Positions 4,591 through 63,920 of a stretch of 64,000 nucleotides of DNA are shown in pieces; position 1 is the first letter of the stretch; each line of letters begins with the position of its first letter. Location: NCBI GenBank assembly GCA_030390025.1, contig CM059432.1, positions 91,886,001-91,950,000 of the forward strand, written 5' to 3'. Source of the stretch: Squalus acanthias. Taxonomy: Eukaryota. A program made the translations under genes and the position numbers. The notes below the pieces were generated by a model. That model was given only the letters and a program-made list of their open reading frames with translations, ran no database searches and was not told the origin of the DNA.

Positions 4591-4605
4591 ATAAACTTCT
4601 ATAGT

Positions 4606-15717: not shown

Positions 15718-15831
15718 AGGTTTGTCCAGTAACATCAGATCTCGAACACCAACACCACCCAGTGGAACTAGGAATGTTGCTGCTACAGTCTCGGTGAACA
15801 AAAAGACTTACAATGCTGAGAATTATATAAG
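15718..15831 (+). CDS. ZC2HC1A: ZC2HC1A penultimate coding exon (114 nt, phase 2-2)
   Basis: Acceptor TTTTATTTTCAG and donor AG|GTAGTA. Encodes GLSSNIRSRTPTPPSGTRNVAATVSVNKKTYNAENYIR, resembling the human segment as recalled (NVKPRNSTPPSLARN..KRKTYTESYIAR). Splices in frame to the next exon. Confidence 0.88.
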
Positions 15832-16808
15832 GTAGTATAGTGTTTAATATACTGTAACTTGAAAGGGAGGAATCTGTTCTATTGAAGCTATTTTATTTGT
15901 TTTTATATCCAGAATAAAGTAGTGAGAATTCACCTTCAGCTGATGGTTTTTACTTGGATTCAATTTGAAGCTTGCAGTCTTTTTTTCATGAAATGGGTTT
16001 GTGAAATTTTGAATTTTTTGGAGGGTTGAAGAAAGAGAATAAAGTGTGTACCCTTTGTGTCTTTATAATTTGTATGCTTCAAAGAAATGCTATAATTTGT
16101 TATAGTTGAAAATTTCTGGGATTCTTTTCGTTTGTTGATTTTGAGATGTGGACAACTCTGGCAAGGCTGGCATTTATCGCCCATCCCAAGTTGCCCTGAG
16201 AAGGTGGTGGTGGTGGGCTTCATTGAACTGCTGCTGCCCTTGTGCTTATGGTACTCCCACAATGATTTTCAGCATTGGTATTAGGTAGGGAAATCCAAAA
16301 TTTGTACCCAACAACAATTAAGGAATGTTTAAGTCAGGATGGCATGTGGCTTGGAGGTGTCCTCATGATCTTGCTGCTCTTGTCAAGTATAACGATTCAA
16401 GAAGTGACATGAATCTATTTTGAAACTTGCACCTCAGATTTGAAAACATTTATAAGGGGAGGCACACTTTCCAAGTTCCTATGGAAAAAGTTGATATACA
16501 GCCATTACAGTGCATTTTAAATTCAGTGTGGGCAGAGAAAGGTGTATGGTGTTAGTGATGCTATAAACAGAAAGGAATACTGCTGAAGGCACTGAGGAAC
16601 TAAGTATTACCATTAATAGTGCATGATACTGAAATGTGATTATACCTATGGGGATTGTGAATGATTAAGGATGTAACCTTGCCTCAGATTCTTGAAAAAT
16701 ATATTGAAGTTAATATTGGCTGTTCTGAACTATTCTTGAAACATTGCTATTAGCTGAAGCTTGAAATCCTGCCATTTCATTAAGATAAATTACACTTTTC
16801 TTTTCCAG

Positions 16809-16998
16809 GAACAGTATGAAATCTGCTTCAGACACCAGGGATCATTCCCTGACTTTCAATGATGGGATCATGAAAGGCAATGTTAGAAGTTCAGCTGGTC
16901 AACAACTGCCGAGATTTTGTCATGAATGTGGAACCAAGTATCCTGTGGAGTGCGCAAAGTTCTGTTGTGAATGTGGAATGAGAAGGGTGACCCTTTGA
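16809..16998 (+). CDS. ZC2HC1A: ZC2HC1A (FAM164A) terminal coding exon with C-terminal zinc ribbon
   Basis: Acceptor CTTTTCTTTTCCAG. Encodes ..[32 protein letters not shown], matching the ZC2HC1A C-terminus [24 protein letters not shown]. Confidence 0.93.
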
Positions 16999-24550: not shown

Positions 24551-24719
24551 TTGACTAGTAAGTAATACATCAACTGCACATGCTCAGTGTACATTCAGAC
24601 ACTTGAGGCTACTCAATAATAATACAAGCTAGCAGATCAGGTATTACACAGGATAAAGCTCCTTCTGCCTTAGCCTCAGAAGAGCAGTCACTACTACATC
24701 AATGTGGCATTTTCCATTT

Positions 24720-26040: not shown

Positions 26041-26309
26041 ACTGCCTCACTTTGCAGCTATTTATAATTAAAGATTTTTCTGTGACAACCTTAACTATAT
26101 CTTTAGAGACTGAATTAATAATCTTATCACAAAACTTGAGGGATTCTTCATGATCAGTGCTACTGATTTAAGTTTTTTACGGAAAAAATTACAAGTAGAG
26201 AGGCCATTAAAATAAAACTTACCTGAAAATAATTATGTTTAAATTTAAAGAGTGGGGTGCTGAACTTATTTTGAAAGGGCTGGTGGAACAGAGTTGGGAA
26301 TGGCCAAAG

Positions 26310-32844: not shown

Positions 32845-35800
32845 CTACTTATATTTATATAGCGCCTTTAACGTAATAAAATGTCCCAAGGTGCTTCACA
32901 GGAGCGTTACCAAAAAAAAAAAAAAATTTGACACCAAGCCATATAAGATGTTAAGGCAGGTGACCAAAAGCTTGGACAAAGAGGTAGGTTTTAAGGAGCG
33001 TCTTAAAGGAGGAAGGAGAGGTGGAGAGATTTAGGGAGGGAATTCCAGAGCTTAGGACCCAGACAGCTGAAGGCACGACCACCAATGGTGGAGTAATTAA
33101 AACCAGAATGATCAAAAGGCCAGAATAGGCAGAGTGCAAAGGTCTAGGGGGATTATAGCGATAAGGAGGGGCGAGGCCATGGAGGGATTTGAAAACACGG
33201 ACGAGAATTTTAAAATTGAGATGTTGCTTAACTGGGAGCCAATGTAGGGCAGCGAGCACAGGGGAGATGGGTGAGCGGGACTTAGTGCGAGTTAGGATAT
33301 GGGCGGCAGAGTTCTGGATGACCTCAAGTTTATGGAGGGTAGAGCTAGGGAGGACGCCCGAGAGTGTGTTGTAATACTCAAGTTTAGAGGTAATAAAGGC
33401 ATGGATGAGGGTTTTGGCAGCAGATAAGTTGAGATAAGGGCGGAGACGGGTGATGTTGCAAAGGTGGGAAATGGGCGGTCTTAGTGATGGAATGGGTATG
33501 AGGTAGGAAGCTCAATTCGTGATCAAATATGACGGCCATGTTGCGAACAGACTTGGCCAGCCTTGGACAGTTGCCGGGAGAGGGGTCGAATCGGTGGCGT
33601 GAACCGAAGACAATGACTTTGGTCTTCCCAATATTTAACTGGAGGATGTTTCTACTTATCCAGTGCTGAATGTCGGACAAGCAGTCTGACAGTATAGAGA
33701 CATTCGAGAGAGTTAGAGTTGGGTATCAGCAGCATACATGTGAAAACTCGTACTGTCACTGGATAATGTCACCGAGGGGCAGCATGTAGATGACAAATAG
33801 GAGGGGGCCAAGGATAGATCCTTGGAGAACACCAGAGGTGACGGTGTGGGAGTGGGAAAAGAAGCCATTACATGTGATTCTATGGCTACGGCTTGAAAGA
33901 TAGGAATGGAACCAGGCGAGTGAAGTCCCATCCAGCTGGATGACGGTGGAGGGGCGTTAGAGCATAATTTTGTGGTCAAATGCTGCAGACAAGACGAGAA
34001 GGAATAGTTTACCTTTGTCGCAGTCAATTAGGATGTCATTTGTGACCTTGATGAGAGCTGTTCCAGTACTGTGGCGGGGCCACAAACCTGATTGGAGGGA
34101 TTCAAACAAATAGAGTTCTGGAAAAGATGGGCACAGATTTGGGAGGCGACAACACATTCAAGAACTTTGGAGAGGAAAGGGAGGTTGGAGATGGGGCAGT
34201 AGTTTGCAAGGATGGAGGAGTCGAGGTTTTTTTTAGGAGAGGGGTGATGTCAGCAGATTTGAAGAAGAGAGGGGCAATACCTGAGGGGAAGAGAGAGAGC
34301 CGTTAATATCAGCTAACATGGGAGCCAGGAAGTGAAGTTGTGTGGTCAGCAATTTAGTAGGAATAGGGTTGAGAGAGCAGGAGGTCGGTATGATAGACCA
34401 GATAAGCTTTGAAAGGGCAAGAAGGGAGATGAGAGAAGCTAGAAAAAAATTCAAATTTAGTGTTAGGCAGGGGAAAAACTGAGAGGAAGTAAGGACCGGT
34501 GGACTAGGGGAAGTGAGGGAAGTAGCAGAGGCAGTTGAATGGATGTTCTCGATCTTTTTAACAAAAAAATCACTGAGCGCCTCGCATTTATTGTTGGAGG
34601 TGAGGGAGGAGGAGGCGACAGGGGAGGGTGGTTTGAGAAGACAGTTAGTGGTGGACAAGAGAAGCCTGGTGTTATCTTTACCTTCCTGGATGATCTTGGA
34701 ATAGTGGACAGTTTTAGCAATGGAGAGCGGTACCCAATAATGCTTTATATGATCTAGGCATATCTGGTGATGTATGGTTAGTTCAGTTGTCCACCAAAGA
34801 CGTTCAAGTCTGCGTCCCTTAAGGAAGCGGAGATGAAGGGTATACGAGGGGGCATGACTAGGGTGAGAGAGTGTAATGATTTTAGTGGGGACAAGAGTAT
34901 CAAAGGTGGTAGAGAGGGTGTGGTTTAGCATCTCAGTAGCTGCAGAAATGTCATTAAGAATTGTAGGCCAAAGGCTAGATAGTTGGGAATTAGATAGTGC
35001 AATGGTAAGGGACTTGGGGGAGAGTTTTTTCCAGGGGCAGACACAGAAAGAATTGGGGTTGGGTGGGGGAAGGGGAATTATGGGTAGAGAATGATGTAAG
35101 GAAATGGTCAAAGATTGCCTTATCAGTTATAGTTACGGTAGGGATAGCTAGGCCACGTGAGATAAGATCAATGGGGTGACCATGTATATGGGTGGACGAG
35201 TTTACACGGAGAGAGAGATTAAGGGAGGAAAGGAGGGCAATGAACTCCGAGGAGAGGGAGTAGGAAGAGTTGAGGTGGAGGTTGAAAACACCAAGGATGA
35301 GAAGTCACTCAGTGCAGAGGCAGAGGAAAGCAGAGAAGATATCTCGGTGAGAAAATTGGTGTGGTATTTGGATGGGTGGTACAGAACAAGGATTTTAAAA
35401 GAGACACGTGAGGGGTGGAACAAGGTGAGATGCTCGATGGAGGAGAATGGAGACAGACCAAGGTGTGATTTAGAGATCAGGGCTACACCACCACCATGGT
35501 GATTTGGGCGGGGCAAATGGTGGAAAGTATAGTCAGGTGGGGGTGCTTCATTGAGGGGAAAGGTGTCATCACCACTCAACCATGTCTCCGTCAATGCTAT
35601 GATGTCAGTGTGATCATCCATAATAAGGTCATGGATGGCAAGGCCCTTATTTAAAAGTGAATATACATTTTGAAGGGAAATGTGGAGAAGGGCGATGATA
35701 ACTAATTTACTGGCAGAGTCCAAAGGGGCAGAGCAGGGAGGGGACCGGGAGGAGATTGGTGAGATTAGCCCACAGCAGGCGCTTAGAACGGGAAGGGCAG

Positions 35801-36110
35801 GGAGAGAATAAGATGGGGCAATTGGGTTTACTGCTCACTAGGAGGCCGCAACGAGTGCCTCGTGGGCCTTTTGAAGGATGCCAAGAGAGGCACAGAGGGA
35901 AGCTGTAGAATTATTTAGTAGGGAGTTAAGATTGAGCGGCGGCAGGGGAGTAGAAAAGATGATGAGTAGTGAAGAATTGGGGATAGTGAGGGTAGAGTAC
36001 CTGAAGGCGGAGAAAAGAAAGGAGGCATGAAGGCACGGGGTTAAGAGGGAGAGATAGAAGTGATGAACTCAGGTCCGGAGCAGCAGCCAAAATGCCCACG
36101 CAGATGGACA
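32845..36110 (-). mobile_element. Near full-length L2 LINE (endonuclease + RT), degraded
   Basis: SLQNVYSL..IIALTETWL..GGGVALI (APE), SCSLNPIPTKLL, FESLQSG..LIKVTND, LHWLPV, and tail at 32845. Confidence 0.92.
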
Positions 36111-38459: not shown

Positions 38460-39545
38460 CCCTCCTGTTCATCAGCCTCATCCTCATCCTCCTCTCCCTC
38501 GTCCACCTCCTGAGGTGTTCCCGCAATCCCTGGTGGCAAGGGCTGAGCCCTAATGATGGCCAAGTTGTGGAGCATGCAGCAGACCACCACAAAATGGGAC
38601 ACCCACTCAGCCAACTACTGGAGGGCTCCTCCCGAGTGGTCAAGGCAGCGGAACCGTTGCTTCAGTAGCCCGATGGTCTGCTCGATGATGTTCCTGGTGC
38701 CAGCATAGCTCTCATTAGATGAGTGCTGGGCAGGAGTGTTGGGGTTGCGGAGGGGAGTCATGAGCCAGCAGGAGAGCGGATAGCCCTTGTCTCCAAGCAG
38801 CCACCCTCGAGCTTGACGTGGTGGCTGAAAGAGTGTTGGCACACTGGACTGGCGCAGGATGAAGGCATTGTGGCTACAGCCAGGATAACGGGAATTGACA
38901 TTGAGGATTCACTGTGCATGGTCGCACACCAACTGCACATTAAGTGAGTAGCAGCCTTTGCGGTTACGGAAGATCTCAAGATTGTCATGCGGTGCCCACA
39001 AAGCCACGTGGGTGCAGTCGATGGCGCCCTGCACCATGGGGAAGCCCGCTATCCTGGCAAAGCCACATGCACACTCGTCCTGCTTCTCTCTGGTGAGGGG
39101 AGCCAATGTAATCTCTTCTCCTGGTGTAGAGAGTCTCGGTGACCTCCCAGATGCAGCGATGGACGGTGAACTGAGAGATGTTGGATATGTCTCCTGCTGC
39201 AGACTGGAAGTATCTGCTGGCGAAGAAATTGAGGGCCACAGTGACCTTGAATGCCACTGGGAGAGCTGTGGTTGCCCTGGTCTGAGGCTGGAGCTCTGGT
39301 TGCAGGAGGTGGCAGAGTTCTGTGACCACTTCCTTGGTGAAGCAGAGCCTCCTAATACAATTCTCTTTGCTTAACTGGAGGTAGGAGAGGTGCTGTCTGA
39401 AGACCCTAGGTGGGTAAGGCCTCCTGTTGAGAGCCCTGATGGCCCTCCTCTTCCCTCTGCGCACATGTTCCCGTCTTTCACCCTGCCTCCGCTCACTCCG
39501 CCGTAGATCCTGGAGGGCGAGGTTGACTGCCAGTACAGCCCGCAT
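38460..39545 (-). pseudogene. PIF/Harbinger (HARBI1-like) DDE transposase pseudogene
   Basis: KVTVALNFFAS..SAAGDISNISQFTVHRCI, GFPMVQGAIDCTHV..RNRKGCYSLNVQLVCD, WLLGDKGYP..LMTP..RNIIEQTIGLLKQRFRCL. Frameshifted. Confidence 0.92.
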
Positions 39546-39859
39546 GACTTTTAGCAAGTGTTGTACTTTGAAGCATTTCAAAAATACTGAGGGAGTTCTG
39601 TACTTGCCAGAACACTCCCTGATACCTAATAACCTTGAAATAACTAAATAATACTCTTGCAGTTGCAGGAAGTAGCACACAGCCACTCAAACTGCAAAAC
39701 CCTGTCAGGCGCGAGTGATTGGTGATGATCCCTTTAAATATTGTTGCTGGAGCCAGCTTCCTGCTGCTGTACGCCAGCTTTACCTGTCGTTGCATTCTCT
39801 AGCCGGTAACTGCAATGGCCAAATCCAAATTAGGAGATCGGGCATCAAGTGAGCGTTGC

Positions 39860-42800
39860 ATAAGAACATACGAAATAGGAGCAGGAGTAGGCCCTTCGAG
39901 CCTGCTCTGCCATTCAATGAGATCATGGCTGATCATCTGCCTCAACTCCATTCACCGGCCCTATCGCCATATCCCTTGATGCCCTTACTAGTCAGAAATC
40001 TATCGACTTCTGTTTTGAATATACCCAATGACTGAGCCTCCACAGCCCTCTTGGGTAGAGAATTCCAAAGATTCACCACCTTGTGTGTGAAGAAATTTCT
40101 TCTCATCTCAGTCCTGAATGGCCTACCCTTTATCCTGAGGCTGTGGCCCCTGGTTCTAGACTCCCCAGTCAAGGGAAACATTCTCCCAGCATCCACCCTA
40201 TCAAGCCCTGTAATAATTTTGTATGCTTCAATGAGATCCCCTCTCATTCTTCTGAATTCAAGAGACTACAGGCCTAGTTTACTCAATCTCTTCTCATACG
40301 ACAGTCCCGCCATCCCAGGAATCAATCTCATGAACCTTCGTTGCACTCCCTCTATGGCAAGTATATCCTTCCTTAGGTAAGGAGACCAACATTGTACACA
40401 GTACTCCAGGTGTGGTCTCACCAAGGCCCTATATAATTGGAGTAAGACTTCTTTACTCCTGTACTCAAATCCTCTTGTAATGAAGGCCAGCATACCATTT
40501 GCCTTCCTAATGGCTTGCTGCACCTGCATCTGCACATTCACTTTCAGTGACTCATGTACAAGGACACCCAGGTCCCTTTGAGCATCTGCATTCCCCAATC
40601 TTTCACCATTTAGAAAATACTCTGCCTTTCTGTTTTTTCTACCAAAGTGGATAACTTCACATTTATCCACATTATATTCCATCTGCCATGTTCTCGCCCA
40701 CTCACTGAGCCTGTCGAGATCCCCTTGAAGCCTCTTCACAACTGACACTGCCACCTAGCTTTGTATCATCAGCAAATTTGGAAATGTTACATTTAGTCCC
40801 CTCATCCAAATCATTGATATAGATTGTGAATAGCTGGGGCCCAAGCACCGATCCTTGCGGTACCCCACTAGTCACAGCCTGCCATCCTGAAAAAGACCCG
40901 TTTATCCCTACTCTTTGTTTTCTGTTTGTTAACCAATTCTCAATCCATGCTATTATATTACCCCCAATTCCATGTGCCCTAATTTTGTTCACCAACCTCT
41001 TGTGTGGGACCTTATCAAAGGCCTTCTGAAAATCCAAATACACCACATCTACTGGTTCCCCTTTGTCTACTCCACTAGTTACATCCTCAAAGAACTCCAA
41101 TAGGTTTGTCAAACAGGATTTCCCTTTCATAAATCCATGTTGACTCTGCCCAATCTTACTATTAATTTCTAAGTGCCCAGTTATTGCATCCTTTATAATA
41201 GATTCCAACATTTTCCCAACTACTGATGTGAGGCTAACAGGTCTGTAGTTCCCCGTTTTCTCTCTCCCTCCTTTCTTAAATAGCAGGGTTACATTTGCTA
41301 TCCTCCAATCTGCAGGAACCATTCCAGAATCTATAGAATTTTGGAAGATGACAACCAATGCGTCCACTATCCCAATGGCCACCTCTTTCAAAACCCTAGG
41401 ATGTAGGTCATCCAGTCCTTGGCATTTATCGACTTTTAGTCCCATTAATTTTGCTAGTACTGTTTTTTTACTAATAATTTCTTCAAGTTCCTCATTCTCG
41501 CCACACCCTTGGTTTTCTCATTTTCTGGGAGGTTTTTTGTGTCTTCCTCTGTGAAGACAGAAACAAAGTATTTATTTAATTTTTCTGCCATTTCCTCATT
41601 CCCCATTATAAATTCTCCCATCTCTGACTGTAAAGGACCTACATTTACCTTGGCCAGTCTTTTCCATTTCAAATACCTATAGAAGCTTTTACAATCCGTT
41701 TTTATATTTTTCGCTAGTTTGTGCTCATATTCCATTTTCCCTTTATCAATTTCTTGGTCCCCCTTTGCTGATTTCTAAAAAGATCCCAATCCTCAGGCTG
41801 ACCGCTTTTTCTGGCAACTTTATAAGCTTCCTCCTTTGACTTAATACCAGCTTTAATTTCTTTTGTTAGCCATGGTTGGATCACTTTTCCTTTTGGCTTT
41901 TTATGCCCCAGAGGAATATGTGTTTGTTGCAAATTATGCATTATTTCCTTGAATGTTAGCCATTGTATGTCCACCTTCATACCTTTTAGTGTAGTCTCCC
42001 AATCTACCATGGCCAACTTGTCCCTCATACCCTTGTAGTTGCCTTTGATTAGATTGAAGACCTTAGTTTCAGATTGGACTACATCACTCTCAAACTTAAT
42101 GTAAAATTCAATCAAAATGGGCCAGAAATTCTGCTCCCTGGCTTCCCGCGGGTGCAAGGATCGCGCGCGCACCTACCTACCGCGCCAGCCGTTGACCCCT
42201 GGGCCCACGAGGAATTCGGGTCCTGGGCCTCCTCCAACTGCCGGCGCGCAGGGCTTGTGTGTCCCAGGGGCGTAGTTAGTGCGATGCGTCCCCTGGGATC
42301 ACGTGGGCCATGGAGAGCCAATGGCAGCAGACCATCTTTCATTCATAGATTTGACAGGAAGACCTGTCAAATCTATGAATACAGATCAGCCCCAAAACAT
42401 CCCTAAAACTACAAATAATTTTTTTTTTAATCACATTTTTAAAATAACTATAAATTACATTAATTAACTATTTTAAACAAAAATTTAAATTTTTGAAAAA
42501 ATTAATTACACTTTTTAACAGGGTTAAAACTAAACTTACCTTTCTTTAAAGTAATTAAAAAAGATAAATCTGTGGAAAAAAATGTTTAAATTTTAATAAA
42601 ATCAACACCTTGTTAAAAGAAGGCCTTGCGCCTCCTTTTTCAATGTGTATCTTCTCCGTGCTTACCCTCACGGAGGAACCTGTAAAAAAAACAACAAAAA
42701 AAACGAAGTGCGAGGCGAACGCGCTGGCCCTCCGGCGTGCGCGTTCGACCTCTGAACCCCTTCCTTCAGCGGAACGGAAGTGCCGGTTTCCCGCGCATGC

Positions 42801-43098
42801 GCAGTGCATGCAAGAAACCGGCACTTTCGTTCCGTCCACGGGTGAGTACACAGCGTGTACTCACCCGTGGCGAGCCTAATTTCTGCCCCAATATGGTCAC
42901 TTTCTAAAGGTCCCTTTACCACAAGATTATTGATTAGCCCTTTCTCATTACACAGTACCAGATCCAGAATAGCCTGTTCCCTGGTTGGTTCCTCTGCATA
43001 CTGATCCAGGAAACCATCTCGCATGCATTCCAAGAATTCATCCTCCACGCCATTGGTGGTAATTTGATTTGCCCAGTCAATATGTAGATTAAAGTTGC
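39860..43098 (-). mobile_element. CR1 LINE inserted in the Harbinger element and itself split by a MITE
   Basis: RT ORFs at 40702-41445 and 40266-40754, and FNLHIDW..PTREQAILDLVL at the 5' end. GTTGCA occurs at both junctions. Confidence 0.92.
42119..42889 (-). mobile_element. ~760-bp Harbinger-type MITE, copy A (reverse orientation)
   Basis: TIRs GGGCCAGAAATT / AATTTCTGCCCC with TSD AAT. Homologous to 48384-49144 and 52974-53716. Confidence 0.88.
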
Positions 43099-45467: not shown

Positions 45468-47310
45468 TACATAGATACATAGATACATAGAAGATAGGAG
45501 CAGGAGTAGGCCATCCGGCCCTTCGAGCCTGCTCCGCCATTTAATGAGATCATGGCTGATCCTCCAATTCAGTATCCCGTCCCCGCCTTCTCTCCGTAAC
45601 CCTTAACCCCTTTTGCCTGTAGAAATATATCTAATTCCCTCTTAAATATATTTAATGAGCTGGCGTACACTGCCCTCTGTGGCAATGAGTTCCACAGGTT
45701 CACCACCCTCTGAGTGAAGAAATTCCCCCTCATTTCTGTCCTAAATGGTTTAGCCCTTATCCTTAAATTATGTCCTCTAGTTCTGTTCTCACCCGCCAAG
45801 GGAAACATTCCTTCTGCATCTAGTCTGTCTAGACCTGTCAGAATTTTATACACTTCTATGAGGTCCCCTCTCAATTTTCTAAACTCCAGTGTGTACATCC
45901 CTAAACTACATAGTCTCTCCTCATAGGTCAATCCCGCCATTCCTGGTATCAGCCTGGTGAATCGCCGCTGCACCCCCTCCATGGCAAGAACATCTTTCCT
46001 CAGATGAGGCGACCAAAACTGTACACAGTACTCGAGGTGTGGTCTCACCAGTGCCCTGTACAGCTGCAGCAAGGTATCCCTGTTCCTGTATTCCAACCCT
46101 TTTGCTATGAAGGCCAGCATACCGTTTGCCTTCTTGACCGCCTGTTGCACCTGCATGCTCGCCTTCAGTGACTGGTGTACAAGAACACCCAGGTCTCTCT
46201 GTACTTCCCCCTCTCCCAATTTATTGCCATTTAAATAATAATTTGCCCTCCCGTTCCTGCACCCAAGGTGGATAACTTCGCACTTGTCCACATTATAGTG
46301 CATCTGCCATTTATCCGCCCAATCACCCAGTCTGTCCAAATCGCTCTGGAGCTTCCTGGTCTCCTCCTCTGAGCCCACCCCCCCTCCTAGTTTAGTGTCG
46401 TCTGCAAATTTGGAAATGCTGCATCCGACTCCCTGATCCAGGTCATTAATGTAAATTGTGAACAGCTGGGGACCCAGGACAGATCCCTATGGTACCCCAC
46501 TTGTTACTGCCTGCCATTCAGAAAATGAGCCGTTTATTCCAACTCTCTGTTTTCTATCTGACAGCCAGTTCTCTATCCACGTCAATACTTTCCCCTTTAT
46601 CCCATGAGCTTCAATTTTCCATGCTAATCTTTTATGTGGGACCTTATCGAAGGCCTTTTGGAAGTCCAGGTACACCACATCTACTGGCTCTCCCCCATCT
46701 ATTTTACCAGTTACTCCCTCAAAAAATTCCAATAGATTAGTCAAGCACGATTTACCCTTTGTAAATCCATGTTGACTCTGTCCTATCCTGTCCCCATTTG
46801 CTAAGTGCTCCGCTATTTCATCCTTAATGATGGACTCCAGCATTTTGCCCACAACTGATGTAAGGCTTACAGGTCTGTAATTACCTGCTTTTTCCCTACC
46901 CCCCTTTTTGAATAGTGGGGTAACGTTAGCTACCCTCCAATCCATGGGCACTGTTCCCAAGTCTAATGAATTCTGAAAAATCATACTTAGTGCATCCGCT
47001 ATCTCTAGGGCCACCTCCTTCAGTACCCTAGGATGCATGTTATCAGGCCCTGGGGATTTGTCCGCCTTCAATCCCTTTAGCTTCCTTAACACCATATCCT
47101 TAGAGATATTGATTTGCGTCAGTTCCTCCTTTGCCAATGTCCCTATTTTTCCCGATATCCCAGGGAGGTTTTTTGTGTCTTCCTTCGTAAAGACTGACCC
47201 AAAGTATGCATTTAGTTGGTCTGCCATTTCCTTATTTCCCGTTATATATTCCCCCGTATCTGACTGCAATGGACCAACTTTGGTTTTCACCAGTCTTTTC
47301 CTCTTGATAT
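45468..47310 (-). mobile_element. Young 5'-truncated CR1 with a near-intact RT frame
   Basis: ORFs 46487-47290 and 45569-46378 are in the same frame, separated by one TAG at GVP*G. (CTATGTAT)n tail; inserted in an old + CR1. Confidence 0.95.
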
Positions 47311-48005
47311 AAATCTTTGATAGTCAGATAATGAGTTGATAAAGCTGTTAAAAAAGTAAAGCATATGGAATCCCAAATTTTATAATTAGGGGCATTGAGT
47401 ACAAAAGCAAAGACGTAATGCTAACCCTATGCAAATCATTAGTTAGGCCACATTTAGAATGCATAGGAACATACTGTTCCCAATTTGGGTGTCTTACTCT
47501 TGGAAGGATGTCAATGCCATGGAGAGGATACAGAAGAGATTCATTAAGATTATCCTAGGGATGAGAGTCTTCGTTATAAGGAAAGAGTAGAGAAACTGGG
47601 GCTTTTTTCATTTTTTAAAATTCATTCCTGGGATGTGGGCGTCGCTGGCAAGGCCAGCATTTATTGCCCATCCCTAATTACCCTTGCGAAGGTGGTGGTG
47701 AGCCGCCTTCTTGAACCGCTGCAGTCCTTGTGGTGAAGGTATTCCCACAGTGCTGTTAGGGAGGGAGTTCCAGGATCTTGACACAGCAAAGATGAAGGAA
47801 CGGCGATATATTTCCAAGTCAGGATGGTGTGTGGCTTGGAGGGGCACTTGGAGGTGATGGTGTTCCCATGCGCCTGCTGGAGTAAATGCCGCATGATAGC
47901 ACTCTCAACGACCCCTTCCATCACTTTGCTGATGATTGAGAGTAGGCTGAAAGAACATGAAATGCGATTATATCAACACATCACCAATGTCACAACAGAA
48001 TCATT

Positions 48006-48132: not shown

Positions 48133-48383
48133 ATTATCTTGTTAACACTTCTGGTAACTGGCTCACTGGAACAGCACCCTAGTACCCAAGCTCATTCTAT
48201 GTGGAGAGGTGAAACTGAGAAGTGCCCACATAATAAATGAGTGAATATTTGAGTAGTTGTAGTTGATGGGAACAAGTTACCAATTGTGATATATATTATA
48301 AAAACCCATAGTTATATTTTGTGAACCACTATAGAAGCTAACTGTAGATTTTGTGGATTTATATTAAATATGCTGAATACCGT

Positions 48384-49144
48384 GGGCCAAAAATTCGGCC
48401 CTTCCCGGGTGAGTACGCGTTCTGTACTCGCCCGTATTGCTTCCCGAAGTGCCGGTTTCCTGCATGCACTGCGCATGCGCGGGAAACCGGAACTTCCGGT
48501 CTGGTGAAGGGGCGGTTCCTAGGTGAACCGCGTGCGCGCTAGAGGCTGCGCGCACGCAGCAAACTTAGATTTTTTTTCAGGTTTCTACGCGAGGGTAAGT
48601 ATTGAAGATACTACGCTAATGAAAAGGAGGCGCAAGACCCGTTTTGAACAAGGTAAGTGGTTAATTAAGTATAATTTTAAATTTTTTTCAACAGGTTTAT
48701 CTTTTTTAGATACTTTAAAGAAAGGTAAGTTTATTTTTATCACTTTTAAAAAGTATTTTAATTTTTTCAAAAATTTAAATTTTTGTTTAAAGTGGTTAAT
48801 TTATTTAACTATAGTTATTTTATAAATGTGATGGTTTTTTTTAAATTTATTTTAAGTTTAGCTGTTCTTTTGGGGCTGATTTCAATTCACAGATTTGACA
48901 GGTCTCCTGTCAAATCTATGAATGAAAGATGGTCTGCTGCCATTGGTTCTCCATGGCCCACGTGATCCCAGGGACACATCGCACTAACTGCGCCCCTGGA
49001 ACACGCAAGCACTGCGCGCCGGCAGTTGGGAGAGGCCCAGGACCCGAAGTTCCCGTGGGCCCAAAACACAACGGCAGGCGCGGTAGGTAAGAGCGCGCGC
49101 GATCCTTACCCCCGCGGCAAGCCGGAGAGGCGAATTTCTGGGCC
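48384..49144 (+). mobile_element. ~760-bp Harbinger-type MITE, copy B
   Basis: TIRs GGGCCAAAAATTCG / CGAATTTCTGGGCC. TSD does not match (CGT/ACT). Confidence 0.85.
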
Positions 49145-49649
49145 ACTGTCTTTTGGTATTGATCCCAATGTAAGCAATTTAATCTAGAGGAGTTTAACAG
49201 CAATTCATACTGGGCTGGGAAATGTAAAACTGCTGTTGTATGGAAAGTGACTTTACCACAGATTATGAGTGCTCCATTGTCATATATTCAGTATTTCAGG
49301 ATGTGACAGTAAAGACAGAGCAAGCATAAATTAGTAAAAAGAAGCAATAAAACTAGGTTATAGTCTACGAGTTCAACATTTTTAAAAATCCGGAATAAAA
49401 GACAAAGTTAAAAGACAATAGGGTAAATCAGATCATCTACAATTATCCATTATGTGCTAACTGCAGCCAAGGCCCCACCTGTGACATGGAGCCTCACAAA
49501 ATTTACTCTAAGGAATAAAAAAGGATAAAATCAAACATTTTATTACTTTATTGGCTGTCAAAAACTACTGAGTTAGGCTGTGAAGATAGCAGCACGTGCA
49601 GGGCTCATGAAACAGTAACAGGTGCAATGGATTACAATTTAATAATGCC

Positions 49650-50148: not shown

Positions 50149-52570
50149 GGGCCGAATTTTGCGGTTGAAATAATGGTGAGGCTATTTATGTGGAAATTGG
50201 ACAGCAACTTCTGGTGACTGTACATGTGCAGTTAAACACAGAAATCCAGAAGTTGCTGTCCGAGATATGACGATCCTCCAAAAGCTTCCCGAAAACAGCA
50301 TCTCAACATCTGGGTCAAATACATTGAACAGCATAAAGTTGCTGCACTTACCTCAAAGATACAGACTAAACTCGGCAGAAAAAGTTAGGGCTCGTCTATT
50401 CCAGTGTAAGTGCCCTTTTACTGGCATGGTAATTTTACTGCTAAACAACCTCTCTGGCACTGAAAATTAACTTTTACAAGGCTGGAGTCTCATTTCTGCA
50501 GATTTTCATTATTTTTGGAGATTTTTAAAAAAATGTTTTTTTTACTTTTTCTATCTGTTTCTTATCTCTCTTTCTTAATCCATACTTTTTTCCCTCTTTA
50601 TTTTGCTTTCTGTACCTGATTTTACATTGAATTCAATATTCTAACTGACACAATTTCCCACATCTATTTATGGCCTCCTGGTTCAAACTCTGCGCTGCTC
50701 ATTAACGATTCTTCAATCTGATTGGTTAAAGAGATATAGGCCGCGATTTCGCCAGCTGTGGCGCGGCCGGAGCAGACAGTGGCCGCAAGCTCCGCTCCTG
50801 TCTTCATCCCACTTCCTCCAAGTGATTTTTCCCTGATTGGGCTTGTTAAGCCCGCCCTGCGAGGCTTCCAAACAATTAAAAGGAAGCGGGTCTGATGACA
50901 TCATTTGATGATGCGTCATCAGCCGGTTTCCTTAAAGGGGCCATGTCCAAATTGATTTTGACAGTTGTGCTGTCAGTGCTCTACAGCATTGAGGTGCTGC
51001 AAACAGAGACTGCAGATGGCCTTGCAGGACGACCTCGAGCAGCTCTGGACTTAGAATGCTCGGCAGTGGCCTGCTCCACCTCGGCAAGGGCAGCAGTCTG
51101 GCTGCAGTGACACAAACCTTTCAATGATCTCAGTAGATCACAAAACGTTACTGCAAAGCCACACTCAACCTCATCTTCCTGTGCCACTCATCACATCCCC
51201 ATCACTCTGCCTTCCCTACCCTACTCCTGCACATCCTTACTGACACCAACTTACCTTGCACCTCCACCCATCCCTCTCCATCTACATTATCACATCTCCA
51301 TCTCACTAGCCACCCCTCACACTCGCCCTCATCCTCGTGCAATCATACCAACTAACAACACATAAGGGTAGGCACTTGGGTGTTTTAGCCAACGGTCGTG
51401 TAAACTTTCTGTTAATCTGTTGTCAAGCATTGAAATCCTCAGTCACCACTTTGCCGCCTTGGACAGATTTGTGTGCACCTTTGAAAGTGTGTTAGTGAGT
51501 TCCAGTGAATGGTGAGACATAACGTCCCCCCAATGGTGATGAGTGTGAAAGGAATGGCTTGGACATTGTAGAGATGCTTTATGGTGCTGGTCTAGTGTGG
51601 TACCAACCTGGTGCATCATGTGGCAGCCAGGGTGTACAGTGTTAAATGAAGTAAATCTGGACATGGTGAGGCCATTGCTGGCATCCCAGGCAGCAATGTG
51701 TAAGGGTGATGATGCCCTGTGTCCGGTGCAGCATCAGTTGATTGCGGAGAAGGTTGGTGTGGATATTGGTGCTGCTGTGTGCCTGGTGATGCTGGTGTTG
51801 GGGCTGATCGTGTTGGGATTCTGAGGACCAAGGTGAGATTTTTTCAAGGGCACCGATGCTGATGGAATAGATGGCAGATGAGGTTGAGATGACAGAAGTA
51901 ATCTGTCAATGTTGAGATAGGTTGTTCCAAGGAGGTGACAGTGGATAGAGAGATTACACCAAACACTTCAAAAGTGCATAAAGCTCAAAAATGGGTTCCA
52001 AATCATTAATGCTCCAGCTTCTAAGATTTGGAAGTGAACAGCTGTGAAATGGTAGGTTTTATACCACTTTTGCAGCTTTCACCTATTCACAGCAATCCAC
52101 AGTCATTTAGAACCCGATATACTTACCTGACATGATAGCCGCTCTCCGGGAACCTCGTTGAAGACCTGGTAAAATGGTAAGTACATGGGAAAATGGTTCT
52201 TAACTACCTTTTTAATAAGCTTTTAACTATCTAAATTGGCTGACCCGCCGCTTGGTGTTGGGTCTGTTCAGGGACGACAGACCCGACACTTGGGAAACTG
52301 ACAGAGGCGGGTTTACAGTGGGATACCGACCTGCTGTCAATCTTTGTGATTTTGACAGTGGACCCGCCTCCAAACCCGTACTCTGCGCGCCGGCAAAATT
52401 CAGCCCATACAGTTGCTTGCTCTGTTCACACAGGACCTGATGCTCTGTAGAGGACACTGCGCCAAGATAGCTCTCTAATTTACAGTAAATTCCAGTGCAA
52501 AACCCCATAAAAGTCTATGGGCAAGTGCAAGTGTAATAAACGGTTCACTGTTGAGAGCAAAATCCAGCCC
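50149..52570. mobile_element. Harbinger-type non-autonomous element (outer)
   Basis: TIRs GGGCCGAATTTTGC / GCAAAATCCAGCCC with TSD AAA. Confidence 0.8.
50739..52406. mobile_element. Harbinger-type element (inner) with a possible Myb/SANT-like gene remnant
   Basis: Ends GGCCGCGATTTCGCC / GGCAAAATTCAGCCC with TSD ATA. AVWLQ..FNDLSR-like remnant at ~51010-51145. Confidence 0.78.
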
Positions 52571-52973
52571 AAAGCTTTACGATAATTCAGCATAGACTGG
52601 CGCTCATTCGATGAGGCCATAAATATGGCTGATGTGGGAAATTGCGCAGTAGCGGGTACTCTTCTGAGCTTGGGGTTAAGAAAAATTATTAGAACACAGT
52701 AGTAGGATTTTTCCTCGGCATCTGGCCTTTGCAATACCTGAGTTGGAGTTCTTGATGCTGCAACTCTGCAAAAAAACACAAATCTAAATAAAGAAAAACA
52801 CTTTATATCTCCATGTTATTTGTTTTGCAACCACTTTTGTTAATGCAAAAGCTCTCAAAACATTGCTGAGCTCTGATCATTATTTTGTCTCTGTTGCCAC
52901 ATCTGTTACAAGTACTTATTTTGTATTTCACTAAAATGTTTACTGATATGGATCCATTTTATTAAAAGACAAT

Positions 52974-53716
52974 GGGCCGAAAATTGATCCCGGGACGCGA
53001 GAGTACGCACTGCGTACTCTCGCGTATTCCCACTCCAATTGCCGGTTTTCTGCATGCCCTGCGCATGCGCTGAAAACCGGCAATTGCTCTTCTGAGAAGG
53101 GGGCGGGTCCTGGGTGCATCGCGTGCGCGCTACAGGCTGCGCGCACGCTGTGCACTTCATGCTTTGGACACGCAGGTAAGTAGGGAAGATTTTGGAAATG
53201 TAAAAAGGAGAGTAAGACCCGCTTTTAAGAAGGTAAGTAGTGAATTCAGTATTTTTTTGAATTTTTTTTTACAGGTATATCTTTTTTAGAGACTTTAAAG
53301 ACAGGTAAGTTTATTTTTATAACTTTTTAAAAGATTTTAAATTTTTTCAAAAATTTAATTTTTTATTTAAAATGGTTAATTTAATTAACTATACTTATTT
53401 TATTAATGTGATGGGTTTTTTTAAAATTTAATTGAGGTTTAGCTGTTATTTTGGGGGGGTGTAAGATTCATAGATTTCACAGCAGGTCTGTGAAACTTAT
53501 GAATGGAAGATGGTGTGCTGCCATTGGCTCTAACTGAGTCACGTGATCCCACAGCTCGCACGAATTCACTACGCCGCTGGGATACGCAAGCCCAGCACAG
53601 CTGATGTCTGGAACATCAAGTTCGTGCGAGCTGGATCTGAAAAAGCACAAGCGAGGTGAGACATCGCGGGGAAGGCCTTACCCCCGCGGGAACAGAGCGA
53701 GATCAATTTCTGGGCC
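52974..53716 (+). mobile_element. ~760-bp Harbinger-type MITE, copy C (diverged subfamily)
   Basis: TIRs GGGCCGAAAATTGATC / GATCAATTTCTGGGCC with TSD AAT. Confidence 0.88.
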
Positions 53717-54990
53717 AATATGTGGTCATACCAATTATTCTCTGAACAGTCCCAATATTAATGATTTAGACTTAAATATATATCACAAAATCAGCCAGTA
53801 TCAGAAGTGCCTATTGTACATGTTTCACTCTATAGTGGTATTCCAGTGCATTTTGTCTAAACTGCTACAAATTATTTTTTTCAAGTTACTTTCCCCCTAT
53901 CTTTCCATGGTTCCTTTGCCTAATACAGCATTTCCCAGCAGAGAGGTGGAAGCTGTTCCTATACCTATGCTGTCTTAATTGGCCACCAGGATGTGATGAA
54001 AAGAAATAGTCCAGGGTAACTGATCGATCTGATAAAATCTGGAACCTACTATTTGGTGAACTGCAGATTTTGTTCAAACTTAAAATACAGTCTGTTGTCA
54101 CTCAAAGGGTTATTTCATTTACTAGAAAAAAATCCATTAATTTCATAATTTTTCAAATAGATAAAAAGTATATATTTAGTTTTAATACATAGCCATATCA
54201 AATATAAAAATATAAACCAGAATTATTTTATTATGTACAGCAAGTGATAATCTCTTGCCTGCAAGCACAGCACACAATGAATCGCAGCTAATTCATAGGA
54301 AGTTTCAGACACAGTAAAGGTATTGACACATTTTCCATCAGTAACACTTCAAACAATCGCTAACTTTAAAGGAAAATAAAGGGCAAAAACATATTTGCTC
54401 AATACAGTAATTTACACACAAAATCACAATATATTCTTCATGACACTGTTCCTGTATTTGACACATCTAATCTCAGTAAAACACAACATAAATTAAATCT
54501 AATCCTATTATGATACTTAAACCAAGACTACTTCATAACTGCATAAAACAGTCTCGCTATAAGAACACCAACAGTGGCTGTGCACTGATTGATAGAAGAA
54601 GTATTTCTGCGCACTGACTACTAATATATATTAGGCTCAACATAGATCATCAAATATTGGAAGACTTGTAGAATAAGTCGGGCTATTTTCCAAACAGGTA
54701 TAACACTGAAGACATAGAAATATGGGCCCTGAAATTCCATGGGGGTTCTACGAATCTCCCGCCTGTAACTCTGCAAGAACCCTCGGGGAACTAGCATAAC
54801 TAGCTGAAGATCATTTTCCTGGAGAACTACTGGTTGAAGTTAATGGAAAAGAAAATCGGCCGGAGTGCAAAATGGGCTGCCGATTCGCTATAGCCCATTT
54901 TGAGCTACCACCCGTCATATTTATATCTTTTTAGGTCTAGAGAATATTGCCACAAATTAGAATTTAATCATATTCCCAAAAAAATGCAAT

Positions 54991-60306: not shown

Positions 60307-60465
60307 TCAGATTTTTGTGAACTTAAATATTTTTCCCCAGCATAAGTTTAAATCTGAAACTTTTTCTTTTATCCTTAGGAACTTCTTTTGTGGGCATTTT
60401 GTCTTGCTCTTGGCTACTGTTTTGGTTGACATCTTTGGTTTCCTGTTGCCATTTTTTCTGCGTTG
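60307..60465 (-). CDS. IL7: Interleukin-7-like cytokine, terminal coding exon (CD loop + helix D)
   Basis: Acceptor CTCTCTGTTCACATTTTGACAG, phase 0. Encodes QRRKNGNRKPKMSTKTVAKSKTKCPQKKFLRIKEKVSDLNLCWGKIFKFTKI*; CWGKIF parallels IL-7 CWNKIL. Convergent with ZC2HC1A. Confidence 0.82.
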   Translation of the reverse strand, partial: QRRKNGNRKPKMSTKTVAKSKTKCPQKKFLRIKEKVSDLNLCWGKIFKFTKI

Positions 60466-60575
60466 CTGTCAAAATGTGAACAGAGAGATTAGACCCGAAC
60501 ATTCCAATAATAAAAACATTTATTTTAATCATTACTACTTTTAGTCAAAACATACCACACAGGTATAACCATATA

Positions 60576-60751
60576 GAAATAACAACAGAAAATGCTGGAA
60601 ACACTCAGCAGGTCAGGCAGCATCCGTGGAGAGAGAAACAGAGTCAACGTTTCAGGTCTGAGACCCTTCGTCATCGACCGGAAACGTTAACTCTGTTTTT
60701 CTCTCCACGGATGCTGTCAGACCTGCTGAGTGTTTCCAGAATTTTCTGGTC
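60576..60751. mobile_element. Foldback Penelope-like pLTR remnant with hammerhead-like core, in the putative IL7 last intron
   Basis: ~70-bp inverted arms CAGAAAATGCTGGAAACACTCAGCAGGTC..AACGTTTC / GAAACGTT..GACCTGCTGAGTGTTTCCAGAATTTTCTG. Exact 10-bp TSD TAACCATATA at 60566-60575 and 60752-60761. Confidence 0.82.
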
Positions 60752-62891
60752 TAACCATATACTTTGTTAATGCTTGCTTAAACATGCAAATAAAAATACA
60801 ATGTTGTTTTATTGCACTTAAAAAGGTATACTGTCAATTCAAATTCAGCTGTGATAATTGAAGCCCAGAGATTACTATTTATAATATTATGCTTTGTCCA
60901 TATTTTAATGGAGGTGTTAATCCATTTATTTTAAGCAGGTTAGTGTCTCTGGTAAAATAGGGGATAAAGGAATCATACAAATGCTTTAAGACTTCCGACA
61001 CTAATATCAGAACCAGTAAATTTCTTACTATAATTTCTTACTATAATAATGGCATCAGATTATCAGCGACTATTATATTTAAAATGAAAACTTTAGTAAT
61101 GTATTGTACAAGCCACTTAAATGGGATAGTCAGAAGGGCCCCGAAAATCTGTCAGCACATCTGTCAATTTGATCCCGGAATAAGTGGCAGCATCTGCCAG
61201 TCGGTGATCTCCAGCGCTGACCCTGCCAAAGTCTGCAGGATCGGGGGAAGTCACCTGATTTAAATAATGGCAATGGGTGTCAACACCACCAGTGGTGCAC
61301 CTTGGGCTCCTGTCTACCAGAGGAGGCTGAAAATAGGGTCCAGGATCTGGGGAAGGAAATGAACCCCTGAAATGATTCCTTACCAGTGAACATTGGTTCC
61401 CTTTATAAGGGGGGGCGATAAATTTGGGCAAAGTTTTTCTGTTCTTTGTGGGTCCAGGCCACAACCAAGACCCTTTGTTGGGAAAATGTTCCATCCATAA
61501 CAAGACCCCATTGAAAGTTTCCAGGAAAGGCCAGGACATGACATCTCCGGGTCTAGGCCTTGCTTGTGCACTTCCAACACACTCCCACCAGATGTTTGGC
61601 AGAGGGCCATGAATTTAGGCCGCAAGATATTTAATACTAACAGAAGCACTTTTAGAGAAGTGTAAAATATATACACATGATCAAATTATTTTCACTTTTC
61701 TGAAAATACTGCCAATGAAGAATATCACATGTCTTACATTTCTGCAATTATACTTGATAATATGAAAGCCTGGAAATTTACAGAAATAATTTGGAAGCAC
61801 ACCTAATTTAAAAAATACAAACACCAGAGAGTTTTGTAATAAGTTATGTGCATAGATATAGTAACAGTATTAATGCTGTTATAATAATCAGCCAGCATGA
61901 GTGAGGCACGATCAAGAACATGACTTCAGTGTTCCCAGTTAGGTGGTCTCAGGCAGGGTTGCAGAGATCAGTGGATAGTGATCACAGGTGCGCTTACTGA
62001 TTTTTCTTGTCCAAAGATACTAAAGTCTCAACTGGTGAGATCAGCTGATTCATACCTGGGGTGCAAATAGGTGGGATGATAGTTTTTCTTAATATTTGTT
62101 GTTGGGATGATCTAGGCAGAGGGCTTTACTAGTCAGGCATAGGCAACTACACACAGTATGGTGGGACTGGAATCACACGGAGGCGAGACCAGGTAGAGGT
62201 GACAGATTAAAGAACATTAATGAAACAGTTGAGTTTTTACAAGAATCCTTTTACAAATCCTTTCATGGTCACTTTTCCAGATTACTAGAATTCTCAATTT
62301 ACCACGGTGGGATTTGAACTCACAATCATTGGATTGCTAGTGCAGTACCATAGTATACAATAATTAGCATGAGAACAAGGAACCAAAGAGGTGATAATTG
62401 TTAAAACAGAGTGCTTTGGTGTACTGATTAGGAGACAAATCGAATGGTTATTGTGGATAAATCAATTGTGGATAAATCAATAAAACCCAATCAGTACAGT
62501 ACACAGCTTCAGTATAAAGAGGAATTAGGGTTTCATTATCAGAGTACAAATCATAAAAGGTTGTATAGTGATAGCGTAAGGCAGTGATCAGACACCATCT
62601 GGAGAATGGTGTGCATTTATTGTCACCTAATCATAGGATGGATATAATTTCCCTTGAGAGAATACACAAGTGAGTAACAGATCGTTCCGAGTAACAGGAA
62701 TTGAAGTTATAAGGAAAATTTAAGGATGTTGGCTTTATTTTCTTTGGGCAAAAAAAGAGAGACTTCAAGACGATCTAACTCATGTTTTCAAGATTATGAA
62801 GTGAATTGACCAAATTGATCCTGGGAAAGCGCTCACTGTGGAAATCAGGGAGAACTTTCTTCATCAGAAGGGTAATAAGAGTTGTGGAATA

Positions 62892-63230
62892 AAGACTTGT
62901 ATTTATGTAGCGCATTATCACATCTCACAGAAACATCTCAAAACACTAAGTACTGCAAGTGTTAGGTAGGCAAATGTGACAGCTATATTGCACACAGCAA
63001 GATCCCACAAAGAGAAGAATCAGAAGTAGTTATTCTATTTTTGGTAGTATTAATTAAGAAAAGAATGTTTATCAGCAGAAGAACTCCTTGCTCTTCTCTG
63101 AATAGTGTCATGGGATCTTTAACGTCCACCTGTACCACCAGATGGAACCGCAGTTTAATATCACATCCAAACGGTGTCATCTTTAACAATGCAGCACTTC
63201 CTCAGTACTGCATTGGACTGTCAACCTAGA
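62892..63230 (-). mobile_element. DeuSINE fragment
   Basis: GGTGGACGTTAAAGATCCCATGACACTATTCAGAGAAGAGCA Deu-domain and L2-type tail. Confidence 0.8.
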
Positions 63231-63782
63231 ATAGAGGTAATTTCCAATTTCACACTCCCAGGCTCATTAATCAGAAGCACGTTGGAAGTCTGGGCAGATG
63301 AACTGTACGGTTTTCTGGCTGTTAATTTGTCAGGAGCATAAAGTTGGAAAATGACCTCTTATGTGCCCCAGTCCTCGATTGAGGCTTGAGCCCATGACCT
63401 TCTGACTCAGAAATGAAAGTAGTACTAACTGAGTTAAGCTGACATGTTGAAGACTGTTGAATAGTATAAATTGGTTCAAGAGACAATTGGATGCATTTTC
63501 AAAGAGAGGAGGAGTGGGAGATGTAGTGGGAAGGCAGGTAGGTTTAGATCTTCCATTAAGAAGAGGTTTGTTTGCATCAAATGGCCTTTCTCTGTGGCTA
63601 AAAGTTCTTATGCTGTAAATGTGGCACAAAGAATCCAGAATTTAAAAATATTTAACCGTGTTAAGCAATGCATCTCTGGTACAGAGTATAGCTGTGCACA
63701 TTCTTGGTCTCCCTCTTTTTAGTTTTAATAAAACTTAAGTAAATATAATAAAATGTGATGTAACCAAATCTTGCTGACATAC

Positions 63783-63920
63783 CTTTTGACTTTTGCAACT
63801 GCATTGCAATGTTTTTTCAGTTTTCCTGGATAAGGTTGTTATCTCCCGATTAAAATCAAAGTTATTGTGTTTAGCAATATAAAATACAGAGCATGTCAAG
63901 CGCTGGACTGAATGAATTTC
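63783..63920 (-). CDS. IL7: Interleukin-7-like cytokine, internal coding exon (helices B-C; 138 nt, phase 0-0)
   Basis: Acceptor TGTGCTTTTATTCTAG and donor AAG|GTATGT. Encodes EIHSVQRLTCSVFYIAKHNNFDFNREITTLSRKTEKTLQCSCKSQK with no stop. Size and pattern parallel human IL7 exon 4 (EGMFL..GDFDLHLLKVSEGTTILLNCTGQ). Confidence 0.82.

Follow-up and report, generated by a model that had tools for sequence, protein, structure and literature searches.

Two exons on the minus strand of the analysed DNA (a 64,000-nucleotide stretch of Squalus acanthias sequence, referred to as the window) very likely make up the spliced 3' end of the Squalus acanthias IL7 gene, whose product is predicted to be secreted, to fold as a four-helix cytokine and to act through IL-7R-alpha and the common gamma chain in support of lymphocyte development. 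Exon A (63920..63783, 138 nt, 46 codons) encodes 46 aa, is phase 0 at both ends, is preceded by a T-rich acceptor ending in TTCTAG and is followed by the donor GTATGT. Exon B (60465..60307, 159 nt, phase 0) follows an acceptor ending in TGACAG and encodes 52 codons plus TGA, bringing the two peptides to 98 aa. The sequence-only reading had claimed two minus-strand exons with strong splice sites, both phase 0 and together encoding 98 aa, and its coordinates and frame were reproduced; the intron is of the GT-AG type. Short-chain helical cytokine genes have phase-0 introns, and both intron boundaries visible here are phase 0. The features of the window were:

63783..63920, minus strand: very likely IL7 penultimate coding exon (exon A), phase 0/0, with predicted helices B and C and three conserved cysteines
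60466..63782, minus strand: GT-AG intron of 3317 nt, read from the splice sites
60307..60465, minus strand: very likely IL7 last coding exon (exon B), with a CD loop rich in basic residues, then predicted helix D carrying the Cys-Trp motif
60323..60457, minus strand: candidate alternative last exon with 44 codons in another frame, opened by an AG that lies 8 nt past the acceptor
15718..15831, plus strand: penultimate coding exon, likely ZC2HC1A, AG/GT-bounded, 114 nt, one open frame continuing in phase into the next exon
16809..16998, plus strand: last coding exon, likely ZC2HC1A, with a double CxxC zinc-ribbon end

The exons were compared with proteins of other cartilaginous fishes. Exon A corresponds to residues 80-125 (37/46 identical) and exon B to residues 126-177 (47/52 identical) of P0003, a Heptranchias perlo protein named interleukin-7-like isoform X1 by NCBI (XP_067832131.1). 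Residues 80-177 of P0003, its C-terminal half, are covered end to end, with 84/98 identical and no gap or overlap at the junction; the CD loop has the same length in both, and the 14 substitutions mark P0003 as the protein of another shark species. The residues equivalent to P0003 C89, C119, C121, C167 and W168 are conserved in the window (alignment A4). When exon A alone was used as the query a single protein was found, Heptranchias P0001 (E 1.1e-16), which carries PF01415 and belongs to a gene whose longest isoform is labelled interleukin-7-like X1. Using tblastn with 17 elasmobranch proteins, exon A started exactly at 63920 in all 17 and ended exactly at 63783 in 14, and exon B was matched in the predicted frame by 11, in another frame by one and by none of the remaining five. 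Among the predicted isoforms, P0012 is without precisely exon A, and P0010, P0011, P0025 and P0026 diverge directly after it. From these relatives we infer that exon A is spliced to exon B in Squalus acanthias. No IL-7-like extra exon was detected inside the 3317-nt intron at E<=1 (tblastn with the 17 relatives, a search that an exon absent from all of them would escape).

Residues 1-79 of P0003 had no match within the 64-kb window (tblastn), which places the upstream exons outside it, in agreement with the earlier statement that they lie beyond 64000. A signal peptide and helix A are present in the shark relatives, as judged by alignment. The claim that the gene had been missed by the open reading frame track holds in that exon A sits inside a stop-to-stop frame of 61 codons and the list of frames of at least 60 aa does not include that of exon B, but any short internal exon would behave in the same way. 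Likewise, the description of the gene as highly divergent is apt when the comparison is with human IL-7 (the Heptranchias relative is about 20% identical to it) but not when it is with sharks (80-90% identity to the Heptranchias protein).

The exons might be left over from an IL7 gene that has become a pseudogene, or be part of a gene making mostly helix-D-less transcripts in Squalus acanthias, although we consider both very unlikely. The window does not include the 5' exons and the 5' half could be broken, several truncated isoforms are predicted in relatives, and the AG 8 nt downstream of the exon B acceptor opens the 44-codon frame listed above. A form starting at 60457 would be without helix D and is a possible candidate in Squalus acanthias; a predicted whale shark isoform (P0009, XP_048452260) aligns to the frame of 60323..60457 at 62% over 45 aa (tblastn). 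Against this, both exon frames are open, the splice sites are canonical, the conserved cysteines and tryptophan are in place and identity to an intact relative is 80-90%.

Assignment to the IL-7 family was assessed by sequence. An HMM search against the IL7 family had been suggested by the sequence-only reading, and full-length P0003 passed the cut-off of the Pfam IL7 family (PF01415; 27.8 bits, cut-off 26.8). This family was matched at E<=1 by 8 of 9 elasmobranch proteins, several shark orthologues scoring below the cut-off (21.8, 18.9, 24.0 and 18.6 bits), and the elephant shark IL-7-like protein gave no Pfam match at E<=0.1. Matches of shark IL-7 to DUF4681, UvrD and Fungal_trans were weak and below cut-off and were set aside. 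Among PDB sequences, human IL-7 (3DI2, PF01415) was the sole match to P0003 under E 0.001 (E 3.2e-4). The CW.KI motif of exon B, proposed earlier as an IL-7 helix-D signature, aligns with helix D of human IL-7 (Cys-Trp-x-Lys-Ile); a role for the buried tryptophan is described in part of PMC7396566. A shark profile searched against 1.84 billion proteins returned 15 matches, namely 6 elasmobranch relatives, the elephant shark IL-7-like protein, 6 bony-vertebrate IL-7 and 2 C20orf204 homologs. The nearest named relatives outside sharks were the elephant shark, coelacanth, axolotl, bird, sturgeon and lungfish IL-7. The elephant shark protein (P0032, XP_007895001.1; E 7.7e-41), published as IL-7 together with the cartilaginous-fish clade of Venkatesh 2014 and Redmond 2018, is identical to the window at 21/46 residues of exon A and 21/51 of exon B.

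Fold was evaluated using the Heptranchias protein as a stand-in. The AlphaFold2 model of P0003 contained four mature helices (mean pLDDT 71), with helices 80-98 and 103-117 in the exon A part, helix 150-173 in the exon B part and a loop at 125-147 with pLDDT<50. Human IL-7 was the best match by Foldseek (prob 1.00, E 0.11, with none at E<=0.001) and by VIA-align (Z 11.8, rmsd 3.4, 109 aligned), ahead of IL-11 (10.3), two TSLP entries (8.9 and 8.3) and IL-9 (6.1), although a Z of 11.8 is not beyond what helical bundles may attain through arrangement alone, as the IL-11 score illustrates. The alignment behind the model included 7 bony-vertebrate IL-7 rows, and the fold match is therefore not independent of the sequence result. 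The four-helix bundle looked for in the earlier reading was predicted for a relative, with IL-7 as its closest match. Together, the family profile, PDB, large-database and fold matches of the full-length relative back the proposal of an IL-7 orthologue in an early-diverging jawed vertebrate.

TSLP shares the four-helix fold (PDB 5J11, Z 8.3) and, according to the part of PMC5382266 dealing with its loop, a disordered basic CD loop like that predicted for the shark. TSLP was not retrieved by sequence with shark queries, either from the PDB, which includes 5J11 and returned only IL-7, or among the 15 large-database matches, and with its lower fold scores this identity was rejected. IL-9 was rejected on its fold score and the lack of a sequence match in the same searches.

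It is also very unlikely that, in place of the IL7 orthologue, the exons belong to a paralogue within the IL-7 family (C20orf204-type, TSLP or IL-9). In favour of this, the two C20orf204 homologs are among the matches of the shark profile and have both a basic loop and a CW-x-K helix D, and the basic loop is found in TSLP as well. However, five of the six bony IL-7 outscored both C20orf204 homologs (43.6-66.3 bits versus 38.0 and 35.8), and the sixth, a turkey form without helix D, scored 39.8 bits; TSLP and IL-9 were absent from the 15 matches. The signal region at the N-terminus of the shark relatives closely resembles that of bony IL-7. In a tree rooted at midpoint only, in which bony IL-7 was unresolved, a long branch separated the two C20orf204 rows from every one of the 13 IL-7 rows (100/100). 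Redmond et al. also grouped cartilaginous-fish IL-7 with IL-7 (BPP 1.00).

The neighbouring gene would also fit IL7 itself. Its end, at 15718..16998, looks like that of ZC2HC1A; the human gene order is PKIA-ZC2HC1A-IL7-STMN2. The two genes lie tail-to-tail with their stops 43.3 kb apart. No tool supplied a name for the neighbour: Pfam gave DZR only (E 0.25, below cut-off), language-model (Atlas) leads were all under 0.9 and PDB matches were at E>0.5. IL7-ZC2HC1A synteny from sharks to humans is reported in a section of PMC6936713. Finally, although exons A and B are short and neither alone matched any Pfam family (0 at E<=10), the reading of both as open frames that arose by chance between fortuitous AG and GT sites is refuted by their exact contiguity on P0003 and by tblastn scores of 80.9 bits (exon A) and 96.3 bits (exon B) against a best of 17.7-22.3 bits in each of 30 shuffled windows.

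In the IL7 gene, the model predicts that helices B and C come from exon A and that exon B encodes helix D after a CD loop that is basic and disordered, with the signal peptide and helix A predicted to come from exons beyond 64000. The CD loop and helix D share one exon in the shark; in human IL7 the loop has a short exon to itself. The shark loop is the more basic, with 15 K/R versus 2 D/E in exon B residues 1-41. The R-X-K/R-R furin motif was absent from the CD loop encoded in the window, a difference from TSLP. By analogy with mammalian and zebrafish work, helices A and C would contact IL-7R-alpha, helices A and D would contact the gamma chain, and expression would be stromal, in the thymus. 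The basic loop may anchor the cytokine to matrix glycosaminoglycans, a tethering proposed for IL-7 and TSLP in the relevant portion of PMC5382266.

The Squalus acanthias gene is very likely the usual shark version of an already known growth factor for lymphocytes. The novelty implied earlier did not stand, as IL-7 of cartilaginous fishes has been published since 2014 (elephant shark 2014, catshark 2018; PMC3964593, PMC6238376) and the orthologue is named interleukin-7 or interleukin-7-like in databases for 5 cartilaginous fishes. The remark that such a gene is easily left unannotated was borne out, the orthologues of the other species seen being labelled only 'uncharacterized protein'. The finding leaves current knowledge unchanged and provides a further IL7 gene model from a shark, useful for annotation as many orthologues remain 'uncharacterized'. 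It is also a reagent to ask whether shark lymphocyte development needs IL-7 alone, as in mammals, or several cytokines, as described for zebrafish in part of PMC6936713.

Of more consequence than the shark model itself is the C20orf204 lead. We propose tentatively, at somewhat less than an even chance, that slowly evolving shark IL-7 acts as a bridge sequence by which C20orf204 is unmasked as a paralogue of IL-7 that has been overlooked. It would be a secreted cytokine with four helices, conserved between amphibians and mammals, and may have arisen by duplication in the genome doublings of early vertebrates, with chromosome 8q and 20q13 as the related regions. If true, vertebrates would have one more orphan IL-7/TSLP-type ligand with a receptor to seek, misdescribed in the human genome, whose secretion and receptor use could be tested directly. 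In humans, C20orf204 has been studied as a nucleolar protein of liver cancer (PMC7969625), and the available text of a 2023 paper calls it interleukin- or growth-hormone-like and does not name IL-7 there.

The C20orf204 tests used only the platypus (XP_028925942/3) and caecilian (XP_029469017) proteins labelled C20orf204 homologs by NCBI. These matched no Pfam family, their two-sequence profile found nothing under E 1 among PDB sequences, and on the portion of the IL-7 profile covering helices B and C they scored -0.4 and 1.2 bits, where shuffles reached 8.8. A model built from only these 2 sequences had four helices at pLDDT 50, with generic bundles as best fold matches, and in the Atlas search the nearest clusters were IL-26/IL-10/IL-22 (0.92-0.93), IL-7 not being among the matches listed. 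Comparison of the shark IL-7 profile with the homologs by hhalign gave 97.7% (E 1.5e-12). Against the mature IL-7 profile the homologs scored 45.8 and 51.5 bits (shuffles <=7.5), and against a profile of bony IL-7 only they scored 34.8 and 40.9 bits. At about 20% identity to IL-7, they aligned to its profile over the whole length, including helix A, the Cys-x-x-x-Lys-Glu at the start of exon A and the helix-D Cys-Trp.

The two exons that the sequence-only reading had assigned to the 3' end of an interleukin-7 gene were delimited as follows:

63920..63783, minus strand: exon A, a 138-nt open frame with a T-rich acceptor before it and GTATGT after it
60465..60307, minus strand: exon B, 159 nt (52 codons plus TGA), with an acceptor ending in TGACAG

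The intron separating them was 3317 nt long, and both visible boundaries were phase 0. Frames, phase-0 boundaries and peptides agreed with those quoted in the sequence-only reading, confirming its two-exon observation. Exon A, queried against longer proteins, returned a single match, the Heptranchias perlo protein P0001 (E 1.1e-16), which bears a Pfam IL7 domain and whose longest isoform, P0003 (XP_067832131.1), has the database name interleukin-7-like isoform X1. Exon A corresponded to P0003 residues 80-125 (37/46 identical) and exon B to residues 126-177 (47/52 identical), and the two alignments abutted with neither gap nor overlap. Exon limits, frames, contiguity with the relative and the family of that relative are the observed part of the gene model. 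Using tblastn, 17 elasmobranch proteins were aligned to the window; all 17 started at 63920 and 14 ended at 63783, while exon B was matched in frame by 11, in another frame by one and was absent for five. P0003 scored 80.9 and 96.3 bits on the two exons, compared with 17.7-22.3 bits across 30 shuffled windows. Residues 1-79 of P0003 had no tblastn match anywhere within the window. Heptranchias was the nearest to the window sequence among the sharks compared, with 14 of 98 residues differing.

Family membership was assessed using the relatives, as neither exon alone matched a Pfam family. P0003 scored 27.8 bits on Pfam IL7, narrowly above the cut-off of 26.8, and 8 of 9 elasmobranch proteins matched at E<=1. 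When 14 further proteins were searched, 11 matched IL7 at E<=0.1, several under the cut-off; the elephant shark IL-7-like protein and two C20orf204 homologs had no Pfam IL7 match at E<=0.1. A PDB sequence search with the relative returned human IL-7 as the sole entry below E 0.001, and the helix-D Cys-Trp-x-Lys-Ile of human IL-7 lined up with the shark motif. A profile built from 8 shark sequences and run over 1.84 billion proteins (E<=0.001) gave 15 matches: 6 elasmobranch proteins, the elephant shark IL-7-like protein, 6 bony-vertebrate IL-7 and 2 C20orf204 homologs. The exon matches to P0003, its Pfam score and the profile search supported the IL-7 reading, and the two exons very likely belong to the IL7 orthologue of Squalus acanthias.

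The available text of Venkatesh et al. 2014 credits cartilaginous fishes with all key CD8-lineage elements, naming IL-7 (PMC3964593), and that of Redmond et al. 2018 groups cartilaginous-fish sequences with IL-7 (BPP 1.00; PMC6238376). Orthologues are named interleukin-7 or interleukin-7-like in Heptranchias, Heterodontus, Cetorhinus, Chiloscyllium punctatum and Callorhinchus, and carry only 'uncharacterized' in the other species seen. The Squalus acanthias gene is therefore one more species' copy of a gene already known. A 2016 review states, in the part available, that recombinant fish IL-7 had not yet been tested at that date (PMC4929537), and among the matches listed for shark IL-7 and its receptor no title indicated a functional study.

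Structure prediction, which the earlier reading had proposed as a check, was run with AlphaFold2 on P0003 as a stand-in for the window protein (17-row alignment, 7 rows bony IL-7). The model had four helices (34-58, 80-98, 103-117 and 150-173; mean pLDDT 71) and a loop at 125-147 with pLDDT <50. Exon A would thus encode predicted helices B and C, and exon B a predicted disordered loop and helix D. Human IL-7 was the top match in Foldseek (prob 1.00, although E was 0.11) and in VIA-align (Z 11.8, rmsd 3.4, 109 aligned), ahead of IL-11 (10.3), two TSLP entries (8.9 and 8.3) and IL-9 (6.1). Because P0003 stands in for the window protein and such Z can arise from the arrangement of helical bundles alone, the predicted fold counts as agreement only, consistent with the sequence-based IL-7 result without carrying it.

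Exon B opens with 41 residues (60343-60465, minus) that contain 15 K/R versus 2 D/E. Cartilaginous fishes have a more basic CD loop than the bony IL-7 examined, with 13-18 K/R in the 45 residues preceding the Cys-Trp motif (13 proteins; a skate protein without the motif was left out) versus 6-12 in 5 bony IL-7. An R-X-K/R-R furin motif was absent from the shark CD loop. Exon B carries the loop and helix D together; human IL7 has a separate short exon for the loop, which would accordingly have been gained later or lost in sharks. The basic shark loop recalls that of TSLP, for which glycosaminoglycan binding has been proposed, as for IL-7, in the available part of one report (PMC5382266). By analogy with other vertebrates, as described in the available text of two sources (PMC7396566, PMC4598789), shark IL-7 would be secreted by stroma, with helices A and C contacting IL-7R-alpha and helices A and D contacting gamma-c. 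The effect of il7 loss in zebrafish is described as mild in the text available (PMC9465101).

Some database-predicted isoforms of relatives broke at the exon limits seen in the window. P0012 (Chiloscyllium plagiosum isoform X3) was missing exactly exon A, skipped in frame, resembling the exon-4-skipping form that human IL-7 has. P0010, P0011, P0025 and P0026 diverged immediately after exon A. Two batoid isoforms, P0029 (Rhinoraja isoform X2) and P0031 (Hemitrygon isoform X2), left the normal sequence before or just past the helix-D motif and may be annotation artefacts. An AG 8 nt within the last exon gives a 44-codon second frame (60323-60457, minus) that would be without helix D; the predicted whale shark isoform P0009 (XP_048452260) takes the equivalent frame, with 62% identity across 45 aa. 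This second frame may reflect noisy splicing, with shared DNA keeping it open.

The platypus and caecilian proteins that carry the label C20orf204 homolog were the two weakest matches of the shark profile (E 1.6e-4 and 7.9e-4). An IL-7 alignment compared with a two-sequence C20orf204 alignment gave a profile-profile match at 97.7% (E 1.5e-12, 167 columns). Two platypus isoforms and one caecilian protein matched the IL-7 profile from end to end and scored 46.7-57.0 bits on it, as against <=9.5 for shuffles (296-300 of 300 reported per protein) and 45.3 bits for human IL-7 on the same alignment. The score survived removal of the signal peptide (45.8 and 51.5 bits) and a bony-IL-7-only profile (34.8 and 40.9 bits); it was contributed by helix A (17.9, 13.5) and, to a weak degree, by helix D (5.3, 9.7), and the helix B-C part alone left the homologs at chance level. 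In a 15-row midpoint-rooted tree, with bony IL-7 unresolved, the pair stood apart from all 13 IL-7 rows (100/100). Two further results were neutral or spoke against a relation to IL-7: a model built from two sequences (pLDDT 50) matched generic bundles, and by Atlas features the caecilian protein was nearest the clusters of IL-26, IL-10 and IL-22, the rows shown containing no IL-7. In published work, PROST returned mostly interleukins and growth hormones as homologs of human C20orf204 and aligned it to somatotropin (PMC9992864). According to the founding paper, the protein is nucleolar, with some of it in the ER and some bearing EndoH-sensitive glycosylation (PMC7969625), in keeping with passage into the secretory pathway. 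Among the matches listed from the openly accessible literature, none linked C20orf204 to IL-7. That C20orf204, judged from these platypus and caecilian homologs, is an overlooked IL-7 paralogue is a genuine but tentative possibility.

The remainder of the window contained a neighbouring gene and repeats:

15718-15831, plus strand: penultimate coding exon of the neighbour gene, joining the next in phase
16809-16998, plus strand: its last coding exon, ending with a double CxxC motif
757-12519, 24674-26918, 32951-35834, 40266-41774 and 45569-47323: many broken LINE-type reverse-transcriptase/endonuclease frames
about 7135-10345, minus strand: a near-complete LINE-type element
38909-39686 and 51443-51905, minus strand: two degraded frames
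42555-42879, 48380-49150 and 52970-53720: three GC-rich repeats, mutually related, that share an AT-rich core and apparently have inverted ends

We take 15718-15831 and 16809-16998 to be the 3'-terminal pair of coding exons of what is likely ZC2HC1A; none of Pfam, the Atlas or PDB returned a name for this gene, and a motif search of the window did not detect its N-terminal zinc-finger exons. By their motifs the LINE-type frames are presumably CR1- and L2-like, and the two degraded frames presumably resemble a Harbinger/HARBI1-type transposase. The neighbour gene and IL7 lie tail-to-tail with their stops 43.3 kb apart and LINE-type repeats in between, and IL7-ZC2HC1A synteny is described as kept from sharks to humans in the available text of Lawir et al. 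(PMC6936713). The three GC-rich repeats are likely non-autonomous DNA transposons.
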